Below, piece after piece: positions 1 through 47,935 of a stretch of 64,000 nucleotides of DNA (position 1 is the first letter of the stretch; the number at the start of each line of letters is the position of its first letter). The notes under the pieces are model-generated. The model saw only the letters and a program-made list of their open reading frames with translations, had not been told where the DNA came from and did no database searches. The stretch comes from a phage. Both the position numbers and the translations under genes were made by a program. The stretch is from assembly GCA_020241125.1 (NCBI GenBank), contig GCA_020241125.1_4708.1. The stretch is one strand, 5' to 3'.

Positions 1-645
1 TGCAAGATAACGATGATCGTCTAATGTAAACCCCTCTTGAGTATAGCCCGTAAACGATGCGGTGGGGGAAATGGGAATATAAGGAGGGTCGCAATAAACG
101 ACGTCACCCGGAACCACCTTTTCAAGATGCTTCTGGAACCCACCACTTACAATTTCTACCCCCCCCCCCTCGACGAAGGCAGCCTGAAGATGGTTCGCTG
201 CCAGACGCAATTCCTGTTTCGGGAAATAGACGGTCTTATACCGCCCATGCGCAACATTAAATAAACCATCACGATTATAACGACATAAGCCATTGAAACC
301 GTAACGGTTTAAATACATGAAGCAAACTGCGCGTTCCCACGGATCTTCAGCGCGGTTAAAACGTTCACGTATCTCGTAGTAGCTTCTGACGTCGGTAGGA
401 TCCGTTTGAAAAAGACGTTCCACTTCTTCGATGAAAGATTCTGGACGCGCTAGCAACGCAGACCATACTGAGAGAATATCCTCATTCGCATCACCTATCG
501 AATACGCTGGGTACTTAAGAGCAAGCGTAACAGCGCCGGAACCAACGAATGGTTCAACAAGACGCTTTCCTTTAGGTAACACTTTTTCAATCTCAGGGAT
601 AAGCCTGGTTTTGTTCCCAAGCCATTTAAGAAATGTTCTGCTCAT
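1..645 (-). CDS. dam: DNA adenine methyltransferase, Dam family (partial; C-terminus lies beyond window start)
   Basis: Own translation of minus strand from ATG at 645: MSRTFLKWLGNKTRLIPEIEKVLPKGKRLVEPFVGSGAVTLA...FNRAEDPWERAVCFMYLNRYGFNGLCRYN...VVYCDPPY; matches E. coli Dam motifs (FxGxG SAM site, LNRYGYNGLCRYN, DPPY). Open to position 1. Absent from ORF track because it runs off the edge. Confidence 0.85.
   Translation of the reverse strand, partial: MSRTFLKWLGNKTRLIPEIEKVLPKGKRLVEPFVGSGAVTLALKYPAYSIGDANEDILSVWSALLARPESFIEEVERLFQTDPTDVRSYYEIRERFNRAEDPWERAVCFMYLNRYGFNGLCRYNRDGLFNVAHGRYKTVYFPKQELRLAANHLQAAFVEGGGVEIVSGGFQKHLEKVVPGDVVYCDPPYIPISPTASFTGYTQEGFTLDDHRYLA
159..169 (-). repeat. homopolymeric C11 (G11 on coding strand) tract inside dam coding sequence
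   Basis: 11 consecutive C on plus strand; encodes E-G-G-G-V in-frame in Dam. Confidence 0.9.
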
Positions 646-44103: not shown

Positions 44104-44346
44104 TTAGCAATGGTTGTTAGTTGCTTCTATTTCGTCAAGATAAGGTTCTACGTCATCGCCCTCCACGAATTCGTTGAACCAACAGTCAATAGTGGAAATA
44201 ACCGGTGACTGGTGTTCACATTTCTTAGATACCTTAAAAGGTACGTTATTATCCATCATGCCGAGTTCGGGTCGAAAACGCCCGAAATGTTTCGCAGTCC
44301 AAATGTCTGGGACGATATGGTTGTTCATTGCGTCGCCGTCAAAGTC
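44104..44346 (-). CDS. RNA polymerase beta'-like N-terminal subunit, exon 2 (begins at the DFDGD catalytic motif)
   Basis: Reading frame opens 3 codons upstream (UGA) and encodes DFDGDAMNNH...; cf bacterial beta' NADFDGDQMAVH. No RBS; joins exon 1 to give GYNA|DFDGD. Confidence 0.6.
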   Translation of the reverse strand, partial: DFDGDAMNNHIVPDIWTAKHFGRFRPELGMMDNNVPFKVSKKCEHQSPVISTIDCWFNEFVEGDDVEPYLDEIEATNNHC

Positions 44347-44696
44347 CACATATCTTCAGTATGAATCGCTACTTCATACCCGCAGCATTACCTGCAGCTC
44401 CTGGTGTTACCAGGACGGAGAGATCATCTCATCACCCACGAAGGGTGTTCCGCGCTACCCTCAGCGAATTCGAGGGACATGATCGTTGAACCTTCCACCG
44501 ATAATCGGTGGCTAGGCTGCTGATTAAACATTGTACGTTGGGGTGGCATCCTGGTTCAGGACTGTCGTTGAAGCCTCCCAACATCCACTCACTTATTTCC
44601 GCCTTATCGGCTCCCATAAGGGCAGAGTGGCTTTAGCCCGTCTCAGCAATTCACGGAATTCAAGCTCTTCCTTTCAGAAGGCAGGGCCTCATCTGA
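44347..44696 (-). other. putative self-splicing intron (group I-like, 350 nt, no ORF) interrupting the beta' gene
   Basis: Exon 1 frame ends ...KGYNA and exon 2 starts DFDGD, restoring the YNADFDGD motif; 5' exon ends in U and insert ends in G; insert carries GGUUCAACGAUCAUGUC and AAGAUAU near its 3' end (resembling group I R and S elements) and several stem-loops (CCUGGUAACACCAGG). Confidence 0.55.
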
Positions 44697-45947
44697 AGCA
44701 TTGTATCCCTTAAGGATCATCACGCTTAACCCGATGGTATTATCCTGCGGATCGCGTTTAACCTTGGTGATTTCAAGACATTGGTTACTGCTTCGGTCAA
44801 GTGATGGGTTTCGAACAAAACCGCACACAATCCCATCGAACGGTGTATCAGCAATAAGCTCATCGTGCAGCTCACTCATCATCGGATGATAATTACGGAC
44901 ATGTTCCGCAACGAACGCACGTGCTGCTCTCGGTGAATAACCACGATGGAATAACTTGGATTGGATATGTTCTTTATTGGTTAAAGTAAATGGTGCGTAT
45001 GGGAAATGCAGATGATAATAACGATGGTTCGCTGTTATCGAACTGATTACAGTACGCGTGGTGAATGGATGTAATGTACCTAATATGTTTTTACGTGTGA
45101 TACCTTTCTTCTTACCGATGAACTCATCGAAAATCGCCGCATGGTATTGCAGTAGCTTCAATTGCACTTTCGCCATCCAGTTTTCTTTCTTTCTGGCGCT
45201 CAAAGGTGTTGTTGGGTGATAGATACTATTCAACGTACCGATAGCATCGATCGCACCTTCCATTTTGCTATCCGCATAACGACCGGTTGGCGTATTCTCG
45301 ATAACGAACATCATGGCCGCAGGAAAGCTGATATACTGACTGAAGAACTTATCACGATGGATACGGATGAATTCTCGTAGCGTATCAACTTTCTCCGTGT
45401 TCTTCGGTCCGCGTAACGTCGGTCCTTTATACAAGATCTCCATGATGCGATCGAAGTTCTGTATAAAACTATTTACACCGCGACGTATCCCGAATACATC
45501 GAATTGCTGCTCCAGATAGTTCTTGAGTTCGATGGGTCGTTTTACATTTGGACGGTAACTGGCATCAATGAGCCACGTCATCGTTTCAAAGCTTTTGATA
45601 TTCAACTCGCTTGCCAGCACGAGATGGACCAACGGGTTAATGAACGCATCAATTCCTTCAGGAACACGCGCCCAAACCGTCGAACGAATCTCTTGTTCTG
45701 CTGGATAGGTTACAACCGTTTTACAGTTCGGACACACCGTGCCGAGCAGCTCACCACGATTGTAGAAACCACAACCACATTGTGGCGTGATATCCAACGT
45801 ATCGCTGGAGTAAACACGGGTGATAAAACTGTTTAATTTCTTCTTCTCTTCGACGACTTTTGTATCGTAATCATTCAACAAAATCGGCGTGAAAGGAAGT
45901 TCTGCGAGCTGTCTATCGAAACTCACGATATCGAGCATGATGGCCAT
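44697..45947 (-). CDS. RNA polymerase beta'-like N-terminal subunit, exon 1 (417 aa to the GYNA junction)
   Basis: N-terminal zinc finger CGCGFYNRGELLGTVCPNCKTVV (cf beta' CxC...CxxC); TAGGAG RBS; unspliced frame continues 17 codons to a stop. Confidence 0.65.
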
Positions 45948-46039: not shown

Positions 46040-47935
46040 TTAGAACAGGTTGAATGCCCCACCCATGTTGTTAACGCCAACATTCGGACGATCGCTACGT
46101 GCGTAGATGTTACCGGAGATGTTACCCAGACCACGAGCACGTGCTGCCATGTTACCACGAACAGCGGTACCTGCCAGATGCTGGATGTTCTCAGGACGGA
46201 TGGTGAAGCCAGCATCAGCAGCGGCCTCGATCAGCGCCTGCAGTGCTAACGGATCGAAGTCGTAACGCATTGCCCAGCCGGTTTGTTCCCAGCTACCAGA
46301 CAGAACACGATCAATGATTTCGTGACGAGCGACAACACGCTGAGACATCGTCATATCGGTACGGTCGAAGCTGTCTTCCCAAGCTTCTACGGTATCCGGG
46401 TTAGTGATGTTCATCATGTACAGATCGTCCATATCACGAATATCGTGACGGTGACCATCCTGGTGGTTATAATGACCCAGCGGGATACGGTTACCGGTAG
46501 CGTAGACCAGTGGTGCGCCGTACTGATATTTCTTGCTGAAGCAACCCAGGGTAGTATCATCGAAGGCACGGAAGAGTGCTTTGTAACCTTCGGAGATTTC
46601 CCGGACTTCACCTTCAACTTTGCCCGTATAGATCTTCTCAGCCGCCGGGATCATACGCAGCAGCCAGCTGTATTCGCCTTCTTCCGGTACGTCGATAGAA
46701 ATCAGCAGAGACGGATACAGTACCTGTTGCAGGAACTTGTAAATCTGCTCGTTGGTTTGAGTAGACAGATCCAGCGGTGCGGTAACTTCCGGATCCAGTA
46801 CCATCGCCAGAGCACCCGGGTTATGCGGACCAATACCACGAGCAGCGTTGCTGATTAAAGACTGTGCCCACGCCATACCGCTGTTCAGCGTAGCGATGGT
46901 GCCAATCAGACCCAACACGAAAGTGTTCGGCGTGAACGCATCCAGCTCCAGCGGGTAAGCGCTGGTCATCACGTAACGCGGTTGGTATTGTACAGTCGGC
47001 GGTACCGGATAACCGTTAACCAGAACAGGGCCTTGGTTGAAGGTCGGGTTCTGCGGGCTGTAGGTCAGGTCAATGTAACCGGTGGTTGCGACCAGACGCT
47101 GCTGACTATCGTAATCGCTCATCGCTTGACGGATGCGGTTAGAGATAGTTACAGTGATGTCAGAACGCACAGGGTTACCAACAATATCGCTGTCCTGCAT
47201 ACCGCTGGTGTTGTACTGAACGCTGCTGATTGGCTGATCGCTTGCCATCATGCCCAGGTTGAACTGCGGCAGACCCAGTTTATCGCCGAGACGGATTTCG
47301 ATCGCGGTTTGGATTGCGTTATCTGCAGCAGACAGCAGGGTGGTTGCCAGATGCGCAGATTCAGCGGTGATTTCATTGGTCACCACAGCCAGACCAGCGA
47401 TACGAGCAGTACCATTAGACTTACCACCGATAGCTGCATACATTGCCGCCATGACTTCGTTGATGAACGTACCGTTCAGGTTATCAACCCAGGTACGCGG
47501 CACCAGAATGTTACCATGCGGGCCTTGTTCTTCACGACGCGGCAGCGGAGCCAAACCGGCAACCAGTGGAAGCACATAACCGAAGAAGTGGTTATGGTCA
47601 CCAACTTTTGCACCGCTCATAACAACCAGGGTCGGATACGGTACACTGTATTGGTTAGGATCGACGGTCACCATGATGAAGTCGTCTTTGAATCCTTTAT
47701 CTTCCAGTTCTTTTTCCATCAGACGACGGAGATTCAGTACCTGCTCGGAGCCAGTATTACGGCTAATACGACGGCTCAGTGTACGGTTGATCGTACGCAT
47801 CGTATGAGTTACTTTAGGCTGGCCAGCAAAATCTGCAGCGGTTTCCAGCGCCTCATCAGCACGTTGTGCGGTGCGGGTTTCAGCTGCACGAATTTCTACA
47901 TTATCGTTACCGTTATTACGTACGTCTAAGCCCAT
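46040..47935 (-). CDS. chmA: candidate chimallin / phage-nucleus shell protein (631 aa); major capsid protein not excluded
   Basis: Large ORF with strongly optimal codon usage, AAGAGGAA RBS, promoter-like motif 70 nt upstream, directly upstream of the beta'-N gene (order as recalled for phiKZ gp54-gp55), ~8 kb from PhuZ. No motif confirmation possible by eye. Confidence 0.45.
   Translation of the reverse strand: MGLDVRNNGNDNVEIRAAETRTAQRADEALETAADFAGQPKVTHTMRTINRTLSRRISRNTGSEQVLNLRRLMEKELEDKGFKDDFIMVTVDPNQYSVPYPTLVVMSGAKVGDHNHFFGYVLPLVAGLAPLPRREEQGPHGNILVPRTWVDNLNGTFINEVMAAMYAAIGGKSNGTARIAGLAVVTNEITAESAHLATTLLSAADNAIQTAIEIRLGDKLGLPQFNLGMMASDQPISSVQYNTSGMQDSDIVGNPVRSDITVTISNRIRQAMSDYDSQQRLVATTGYIDLTYSPQNPTFNQGPVLVNGYPVPPTVQYQPRYVMTSAYPLELDAFTPNTFVLGLIGTIATLNSGMAWAQSLISNAARGIGPHNPGALAMVLDPEVTAPLDLSTQTNEQIYKFLQQVLYPSLLISIDVPEEGEYSWLLRMIPAAEKIYTGKVEGEVREISEGYKALFRAFDDTTLGCFSKKYQYGAPLVYATGNRIPLGHYNHQDGHRHDIRDMDDLYMMNITNPDTVEAWEDSFDRTDMTMSQRVVARHEIIDRVLSGSWEQTGWAMRYDFDPLALQALIEAAADAGFTIRPENIQHLAGTAVRGNMAARARGLGNISGNIYARSDRPNVGVNNMGGAFNLF

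Follow-up and report, generated by a model that had tools for sequence, protein, structure and literature searches.

Phage group I introns of subgroup IA are familiar from the td, nrdB, and sunY genes of T4 and from orf142 of Twort. Jumbo phages can carry many introns per genome, and the presence of group I introns in the polymerase genes of nucleus-forming phages is already established. One is known in PhiPA3 gp65-66. Another, gp210, lies in the PhiPA3 virion RNA polymerase (RNAP) gene gp211/209 and encodes an HNH nicking endonuclease that serves as a weapon against PhiKZ (Birkholz et al. 2024, PMC11620839). We describe an unannotated addition to this group: intron A, a putative intron of 350 nucleotides (nt) in a 64,000-nt phage contig, GCA_020241125.1_4708.1 (the window, by which we mean this whole stretch of DNA). 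It splits the gene for the beta'-N subunit of the early, non-virion polymerase (nvRNAP), directly in front of the codons for the catalytic DFDGD motif. We put the probability of a group I intron that is spliced out at roughly 0.9. Intron A resembles the introns of PhiPA3 gp210 and 201phi2-1 gp273/274 in its group I type and its location in a jumbo-phage RNAP gene at conserved catalytic residues, and it shares a P9.1-P9.2-tail module with the latter; unlike intron A, both of these lie in virion polymerase genes, and the PhiPA3 intron has an HNH open reading frame (ORF) where A has none.

Over 25 kb the region matches Escherichia phage vB_EcoM_Goslar, a jumbo phage of E. coli that forms a nucleus, at 97.4% identity; the alignment comes in two pieces that break at the intron site, where Goslar holds ~1.8 kb in place of the 350 nt of the window. 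At this place Goslar carries introns C and B. Intron C, annotated as an Intron_gpI feature (46.9 bits in Rfam), is, like A, a group I intron in the same gene and in the codons of the same catalytic motif. Unlike A, it sits 5 nt downstream (GACUU^UGAC; the caret marks an insertion or splice site throughout), is unrelated in sequence, and carries a 336-amino acid (aa) HNH_3 and NUMOD1 endonuclease, gp186; it is absent from the window. Intron B (355 nt; 5763-6117 in L001, our reverse complement of Goslar NC_048170, or ~167846-168200 in NC_048170 itself) is unannotated in both MK327938 and NC_048170. It is like A in lying in the same gene, sharing the same fold helix for helix, lacking an ORF, and placing a 5' exon GCU on the guide GGC, and unlike A in following DFDGDA rather than preceding DFDGD. 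We compared the window with 11 further Goslar-like alleles from IMG/VR and metagenome scans, Goslar included, which gives 12 alleles with exons 96-98% identical to the window. Where single alleles must be told apart we use contig handles, among them L009 (IMGVR_UViG_3300045988_173921) and L132 (NFYZ01000026.1).

The reading frames place the insert precisely. Exon 1 closes with the Ala codon GCU (44699-44697), its last base being U44697; read on into the insert, it becomes a 434-aa ORF (45947..44643) consisting of exon 1 and 17 junk codons (SDEALPSERKSLNSVNC) up to a stop. Following a UGA, the downstream frame is open from three codons (AGA UAU GUG) ahead of the GAC at 44346 to a stop at 44104; direct reading of the sequence finds no Shine-Dalgarno ahead of the GUG that precedes DFDGD. 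The insert between them holds 6, 6, and 10 stop codons in the three frames read, and its G+C content is 51.7%, versus 44-45% for the exons and the window. Two small ORFs inside it (61 and 41 aa) are not kept between the intron paralogues A and B. A sequence-only reading of the window had described this arrangement in advance: an upstream piece ending LKGYNA, a downstream piece beginning DFDGDAMNNH whose frame opens three codons earlier and which has no ribosome-binding site (RBS), and between them a GC-rich 350-nt insert with stops in all frames, preceded by U and ending in G (U44697 and G44347). The ends of the two frames are correct to the base and the remaining points hold; the two sequence elements that it singled out, GGUUCAACGAUCAUGUC and CCUGGUAACACCAGG, are both present in the insert.

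Joining 44697 to 44346 yields a 497-aa protein and restores the motif YNADFDGD, as the same reading had foreseen for an ORF-less insert directly before DFDGD. The joined protein aligns without a break, over residues 21-476 (E=1e-74), with phiKZ gp55 (PDB 7OGP chain A), the beta'-N-like subunit in the solved structure of the polymerase that virions do not package; at the junction, ...lkgyNADFDGDa... stands opposite ...lkapNADFDGDq... of phiKZ gp55. The Pfam domain RNA_pol_Rpb1_2 covers residues 371-428 of the joined protein and so spans the junction at 417/418. A tblastn search of 50,697 phage records found a homologue in 307, and in 260 of these one place covers at least 80% of the query; among the matches listed, homologues cross site A, where intron A is inserted, as single pieces. 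Exon 1 and Goslar gp247 are 97.7-98.1% identical in nucleotide sequence and their proteins 100% identical over residues 1-419, and exon 2 is 97.8% identical to Goslar in nucleotide sequence over the part after DFDGDA. As predicted from the joined exons, the beta'-N subunit of the early polymerase is one 497-aa protein and not a truncated 434-aa protein plus an orphan.

The second line of evidence is the structure of the insert (Table 1). All group I core helices P3-P8 occur in canonical order with the P3/P7 pseudoknot, in a model that comprises 18 helices. The R element GUUCAACGAUCA aligns to the consensus GUUCAaAGACUA and includes one side of an invariant G213-C275 pair; the S element GAUGAGAUGAUC is aligned to the consensus UgAAGAUAUAGUC both by Rfam, in the copy of intron A carried by allele L008, and by blastn to the intron of Vibrio phage D181. 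The 3' end reads ...AUGUG at 44347, and all copies of introns A, B, C, and D end in G. Overall, the insert folds better than shuffled versions of itself (z = -3.1), and its centroid structure contains P3 and P4. Intron A agrees with RF00028 and the phage IA introns in its P1-P9 core with the P3/P7 pseudoknot, in its U.G wobble and omega-G, in the R and S elements, and in the helix added between P7 and P3'; it departs from them in a large P5 insertion, in having only one P7.x helix, and in an Rfam score that is sub-threshold or missing. The P7.1 plus P7.2 pair is a trait of subgroup IA; a single helix (p 221-239) is seen between P7 and P3' here. With this one extra helix and with P9.1/P9.2, intron A resembles subgroup IA.

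The sequence-only reading had suspected a self-splicing intron and pointed to an R and an S element, but it had found no P1 or guide pairing and left the class open. The intron reading stands and is now completed by a P1 (GCU^UC-AGAU-GAGGC) and an assignment to group I. Its R element was correctly located, being the P6'/J6/7/P7 5' strand at intron positions 206-217. Its S element was not: the AAGAUAU near the 3' end exists, but it belongs to a conserved tail (CUGAAGAUAU...G) that comes after P9.2 in many such phage introns; J8/7-P7' proper is AUGAGA-UGAUC (intron positions 265-275). AAGAUAU was rejected as J8/7 on three counts: it has no counterpart in Goslar intron B, the internal GAUGAGAUGAUC covaries with R, and both Rfam and blastn align the internal element.

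Table 1. Window coordinates of the split beta'-N gene and of the predicted structural elements of intron A. Intron position p = 44697 - window coordinate.
Feature	Window coordinates	Intron position (p)	Strand	Description
Exon 1, nvRNAP beta'-N subunit gene	44697..45947		-	417 codons; ends ...MILKGYNA; from ORF list and sequence
Exon 2	44104..44346		-	80 codons and stop; opens GAC UUU GAC GGC GAC (DFDGD), reads DFDGDAMNNH
Putative group I intron A, ORF-less	44347..44696		-	350 nt; boundaries from frames, homologues, and site-empty alleles
P1	44686..44699	exon GCU + 1-2 / 7-11	-	GCU^UC, loop AGAU, internal guide GAGGC; U44697 in U.G wobble
P2 hairpin	44667..44680	17-21/26-30	-	CUUCU-GAAA-GGAAG, GNRA loop; 2/5 pairs compensated
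P3 5' strand	44652..44658	39-45	-	UUCCGUG, then J3/4 AAU; pairs with 44448-44454; invariant in 11/11 copies
P3 3' strand	44448..44454	243-249	-	CGCGGAA; closes P3/P7 pseudoknot
P4	44643..44648 (5' strand); 44518-44523 (3' strand)	49-54; 174-179	-	UGCUGA; UCAGCA
P5	44526..44639	58-61/168-171	-	GGGC/GUUU; encloses ~106-nt five-helix branched extension
P6 and P6a	44490..44517	P6 180-182/205-207; P6a 186-192/196-202	-	GCC...GGU; CCACCGA-UUA-UCGGUGG
R element GUUCAACGAUCA	44480..44491	206-217	-	P6'/J6/7/P7 5' strand
P7 5' strand	44480-44484	213-217, pairs with 271-275	-	GAUCA; has G-C pair matching G-binding site
Extra hairpin between P7 and P3' (P7.1/P7.2-type)	44458..44476	221-225/235-239	-	CCCUC-GAAUUCGCU-GAGGG
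P8 hairpin	44433..44447	250-254/260-264	-	CACCC-UUCGU-GGGUG
S element, J8/7 and P7 3' strand	44422..44432	265-270 + 271-275	-	AUGAGA + UGAUC (GAUGAGAUGAUC)
P9 hairpin	44399..44415	282-287/293-298	-	UCCUGG-UAACA-CCAGGA (CCUGGUAACACCAGG)
P9.1 and P9.2	44360..44397	300-305/312-317; 319-324/332-337	-	CUGCAG-GUAAUG-CUGCGG; UAUGAA-GUAGCGA-UUCAUA
3' tail CUGAAGAUAUGUG	44347..44359	338-350	-	13 nt; ends with omega-G 44347 (G350); 3' splice site 44347/44346

Covariation argues that this fold is under selection. Pairs were counted on 11 distinct copies, 4 of intron A and 7 of the paralogue B, leaving out a few pairs at which MAFFT had shifted one strand by a column. Standard pairs fill 98.9% of the cells, and 31 of the 91 proposed pairs change on both sides. 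When the 3' partners are slid by 1-3 columns as a control, pairing falls to 36-45% with 1-4 both-side changes, and none of 500 shuffles reaches the observed values. P7 is seen in three complementary versions (GAUCA/UGAUC, GAAUA/UAUUC, and GAGUA/UACUC), P6 shows a change from C-G to G-C, P6a has two covarying pairs, every helix of the P5 extension contains compensatory changes, and all 5 pairs of the extra P7-P3' hairpin change on both sides between A and B. In P1, the U.G wobble at the last exon base is kept in 10 of the 11 copies, the remaining one, L008 B, having C-G; pair 2-7 is C-G in the A copies, A-U in 6 of 7 B copies, and G-A (unpaired) in L008 B, where pair 1-8 also flips to A-U. Compensatory changes that keep all core helices imply ongoing selection on the fold.

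Several results weigh against this reading. The pairs were counted on the very sequences that gave the structure, and since most of the covariation is a single contrast of A versus B, the independent events are few. The J8/7 of intron A is 2 nt shorter than the consensus, and no convincing P10 pairing was found for it; intron B has a plausible one (AUGA/UCAU). The covariance-model search with Rfam that the sequence-only reading had proposed gave no group I or group II match in the window: RF00028 was not reported at its gathering threshold (50 bits), nor at E<=10 on 44200-44850 (651 nt), nor at E<=5 on the 64 kb. The 99%-identical copies in L133 and L134 likewise go unreported, even in small searches, and every intron at this locus scores below the gathering threshold that formal Rfam membership takes. 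The L008 copy, 97% identical to the window, does give an RF00028 match (26.4 bits, E=0.004) that covers the model from 1 to 253, end to end, and this alignment yields the same P1, P2, P3, P4, P6, R, P8, J8/7-P7', and P9 as the comparative structure. Since this copy aligns over its full length, we read the miss in the window as a matter of model and filter sensitivity; the uneven reporting among A copies that are 97-99% identical is probably an edge effect of the speed filter.

These same features lend themselves to another interpretation, namely that the insert is a group I intron in decay, which needs a phage or host protein to splice, or whose inefficient splicing slows polymerase synthesis like a brake. 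A score that is sub-threshold or missing, a shortened J8/7 without a clear P10, and the lack of any endonuclease or maturase ORF would all suit such an element. Decay sits poorly with core helices that are all intact and kept by compensatory changes, with three full-length copies conserved at 97-99.7% and a 3' end preserved in a further allele (L135), and with an essential gene whose protein is 100% conserved with Goslar over residues 1-419. We regard it as unlikely, though it survives better than the other alternatives.

Sister alleles supply a third line of evidence for a spliced group I intron. Among the 12 alleles, introns occupy four sites within ~30 nt that encode G-Y-N-A-D-F-D-G-D-A, in the order D, A, C, B, and up to three introns occur per allele. 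Site D (GGG U^AU) lies within the Tyr codon, site A is GCU^GAC, site C (GAYUU^YGAC) lies within the Phe codon (GACUU^C in Goslar, GAUUU^C in L009), and site B (GCU^AUG) follows DGDA. Five combinations are seen. Intron A alone is found in the window, L133, and L134, and also in L135, which is truncated upstream, has A, and is without C and B; L008 has A, an 18-nt exon, and B; Goslar has C with its 336-aa HNH_3/NUMOD1 ORF, a 13-nt exon, and B; L009, L130, L131, L136, and L137 have D, a 13-nt exon, C without an ORF, a second 13-nt exon, and B; and L132 has only D, with a 323-aa HNH-like ORF in the P1 loop. In L009 (5244-6365) introns D, C, and B measure 365, 376, and 355 nt and are separated by the 13-nt exons AUAAUGCAGAUUU and CGACGGUGACGCU; in Goslar the 13-nt exon before intron B is CGACGGTGACGCT (L001 5750 onward). 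L008, L133, and L134 have copies of intron A in the identical position, with 97-99.7% sequence identity, and the 3' end of the intron is found there in L135 too. Site A is empty and its codons are contiguous in Goslar (AAT GCC GAC TT), L009 (AAT GCA GAT TT), and L132 (AAT GCT GAT TTC GAC), and these alleles of the Goslar, L009, and L132 types thereby confirm the boundaries of the site. Of the 11 alleles with a completely readable hotspot, none is wholly free of introns, and A never occurs with C in any of the 12 alleles, nor with D where site D is readable.

The allele series bears most directly on a split at the level of the protein, in which a 434-aa N-terminal piece would assemble with an 81-aa piece starting at GUG-DFDGD, and the 350 nt would be an intergenic spacer. 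Jumbo-phage RNA polymerases are indeed built from split beta and beta' fragments, a GUG stands directly before the GAC, and in the Goslar records the downstream piece has its own entry as a hypothetical protein. The break would, however, fall within the catalytic loop, the GUG has no Shine-Dalgarno, the Goslar 'hypothetical protein' starts at an AUG within intron B, and in the supposed spacer an RNA structure is conserved, 31 of its pairs being compensated. Where site A is empty the codons run on without a gap, and since sister alleles cut the motif inside codons and into 13-nt pieces, which cannot be genes, only RNA splicing can restore it, which rules out a split of the protein. We give this arrangement very little credence. 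Group II introns, inteins, and bypasses can also interrupt phage genes at conserved sites, but an element of this kind, including a translational hop like that of T4 gene 60, is effectively refuted by the group I core structure and is the least probable explanation of all: for a group II intron there is no Rfam group II match, no domain V, a length of only 350 nt (vs >=600), and a start of UCAGAU rather than GUGYG; an intein is excluded by 6 to 10 stops in each frame; and a bypass finds no matching take-off and landing codons (GCU vs GUG), a hop of 350 nt being, to our knowledge, without precedent.

Taking the insert as a group I intron, we infer its catalysis and mode of spread by analogy with the established two-step transesterification pathway. 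The gene would be transcribed through intron A, and the intron would fold so that GCU at the exon end and intron bases 1-2 pair with its guide GAGGC, which selects U44697 by the U.G wobble. A free guanosine at the G213-C275 pair of P7 would attack the 5' splice site after U44697; G350 (44347) would then dock in the same site, and the exon 3'-OH would attack between 44347 and 44346. The product would be GCU^GAC, with the spliced junction ...AAUGCU^GACUUUGAC, and the mRNA would encode ...GYNA-DFDGDA..., the magnesium-binding catalytic loop, with GYNADFDGDAMNNH as the predicted junction peptide. Intron A contains no homing endonuclease ORF, its frames all being closed by stops, so it cannot home by itself and its spread must be passive. 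It probably spreads by recombination or co-conversion in mixed infections, perhaps helped by breaks that the HNH enzymes of co-infecting C and D introns introduce; an arrangement of this kind has been termed 'collaborative homing' (PMC3984707). Its retention follows from the location: only exact removal leaves the essential active site unharmed, and an inexact loss would destroy it, an argument also found in the review literature.

Introns A and B share every helix, including a P5 extension found in the A/B family only, at ~71% nucleotide identity, versus 97-98% for the exons. B sits 18 nt (6 codons) downstream of A, and both follow GCU and use the same guide GGC. The codon before an occupied site ends in U (C in L008 B); an empty site B reads GCA or GCG, and an empty site A reads GCC, GCA, or GCU. 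The two are distinct paralogous elements, since L008 carries both in tandem around an 18-nt exon. The same allele led us to reject the notion that the window intron is the orthologue of the second Goslar intron, displaced by 'intron sliding'. In L008 (5617-5631) intron B follows GCC, so that the splice-site pair of P1 would be C-G in place of the nearly universal U.G wobble.

Synonymous differences are concentrated in the six codons that precede the hotspot. The last 18 bases of exon 1 differ at 5 positions between the window (44700-44717) and Goslar (L001 4286-4303), versus ~2% across exon 1, and these six codons track intron content in three versions: CTT AAG GGA TAC AAT GCT, CTC AAA GGT TAT AAT GCC, and TTG AAA GGG TAT AAT GCA. 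The pattern fits co-conversion tracts, or a co-adaptation of exon and guide. We tentatively suggest that one of A and B arose from the other by an 18-nt move to a second GCU site, through reverse splicing or microhomology, and that the ORF-less introns may act as 'squatters' which interrupt the 30-nt target and so shield the catalytic codons from the HNH endonucleases of C and D in competing Goslar-like phages. Squatting would explain why no intron-free allele is seen and why A is never found with C or D. We know of no report of reverse-splicing (or microhomology-mediated) transposition in a phage protein-coding gene. Mobility by reverse splicing is, according to a review (PMC3984707), without direct experimental evidence and rests on related introns at different sites of ribosomal DNA (rDNA). 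Those related rDNA introns at neighbouring sites are like A and B in that the upstream bases of both sites match the same guide; unlike them, A and B occupy a protein-coding phage gene, at sites only 18 nt apart.

The other introns of the hotspot show further features. Each micro-exon of the L009 type must serve both as the 3' exon of one ribozyme and as the 5' exon (P1) of the next. In Goslar intron C, the HNH ORF, with RBS AAGGAGG and a TTG start, lies within a perfect 14-bp P9 stem (UUACGUGCACCGAC / GUCGGUGCACGUAA) after P7'; ORF-less C introns lack both the ORF and the stem (L001 4680-5749 compared with L009 5985-5997), as if the two formed a single cassette. In L132 (6995-7966, minus strand of the locus), the 323-aa ORF of intron D has an I-HmuI-like NUMOD match at 26.7 bits and an HNH_3 match at 19.5 bits, the latter below the cut-off; it is inserted between the 5' splice site and the guide GCCC, and sites A, C, and B are all empty. 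Intron D (L009 5559-5604, L132, and L130) shares the P9.1/P9.2/tail with window 44352-44399 at 87-100% identity and is otherwise unrelated to A; 31 nt of it are identical to the L008 A copy. This shared segment suggests that neighbouring introns exchange modules.

Parts of intron A recur far from this locus. By blastn, positions 263-350 (P7', P9, P9.1, P9.2, and tail) match introns elsewhere, among them those of Vibrio phage D181 (RF00028, 102.5 bits), of the 201phi2-1 virion polymerase gene gp273/274 (87.4 bits), a gene annotated as interrupted by a mobile element, and of a split nrdA gene and a split tape-measure gene. A tail of the form (C/U)UGAAGAUAU...G after P9.2 is common to many phage group I introns (window 44347-44359; L003 ~2540-2552; L004-L006) and echoes the J8/7 consensus UGAAGAUAU; the UGAA of this tail in introns A, B, and D could pair with the conserved UUCA of the P5 extension. 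The P5-extension pattern, searched for in IMG/VR, occurs in Goslar-like contigs only, apart from a single chance match (L138). Many viral contigs contain the 16-mer ATTCCGTGAATTGCTG (more than 120 matches), and the resemblance of their introns to A is confined to short core segments. Tandem arrays with minimal exons occur elsewhere too: in Vibrio phage vB_CoeS_P1 (PV206818; L006 1591-2777), a tape-measure gene is in two pieces, and between them stand four head-to-tail RF00028 matches above threshold (50-74 bits), separated by only ~25-55 nt. The window holds no tRNA genes and no second copy of the intron.

The catalytic motif is also interrupted in a distant orthologue (35% aa identity) in the Serratia/Klebsiella phage KpGz_1 (MN871444; L139 3710-4191). 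Its own group I intron (RF00028, 40.2 bits) stands at AAU^GCU of N^ADFDGD, 3 nt upstream of site A, and the gene is unsplit in the close relative KpHz_2. The motif has thus been hit by introns more than once among the lineages of chimalliviruses. The window itself belongs among them: directly upstream of the split gene, a 631-aa ORF (46040-47935, minus strand) is the counterpart of the Goslar nuclear shell protein (chimallin, gp246), and on the strength of this neighbour the window can be assigned to the conserved block of early genes in a phage that forms a nucleus.

The findings bear on how such genes are detected and annotated. Screening by Rfam alone misses the A/B intron family, and the Goslar reference records also present the gene in pieces. 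In them intron B is unannotated; a 79-aa 'hypothetical protein', gp185 (L001 6103-6342), has its start at an AUG inside intron B; and the entry for the beta' gene is a truncated protein whose frame extends 16 nt into intron C. The Goslar genome paper makes no mention of introns, and we found no published description of a four-site hotspot with 13-nt exons or of the A/B paralogue pair, both of which lie mostly outside the window.

Goslar is a cultivable model phage of E. coli, and the codons of its catalytic loop form a compact natural experiment, with four insertion sites in ~30 nt and a fifth in a distant relative. Introns C and D carry HNH endonucleases in some alleles, A and B never do, and exons as short as 13 nt stand between ribozymes. 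The hotspot makes intron competition, protection from intron endonucleases (as between PhiPA3 and PhiKZ), and ectopic transposition testable by co-infection of E. coli.

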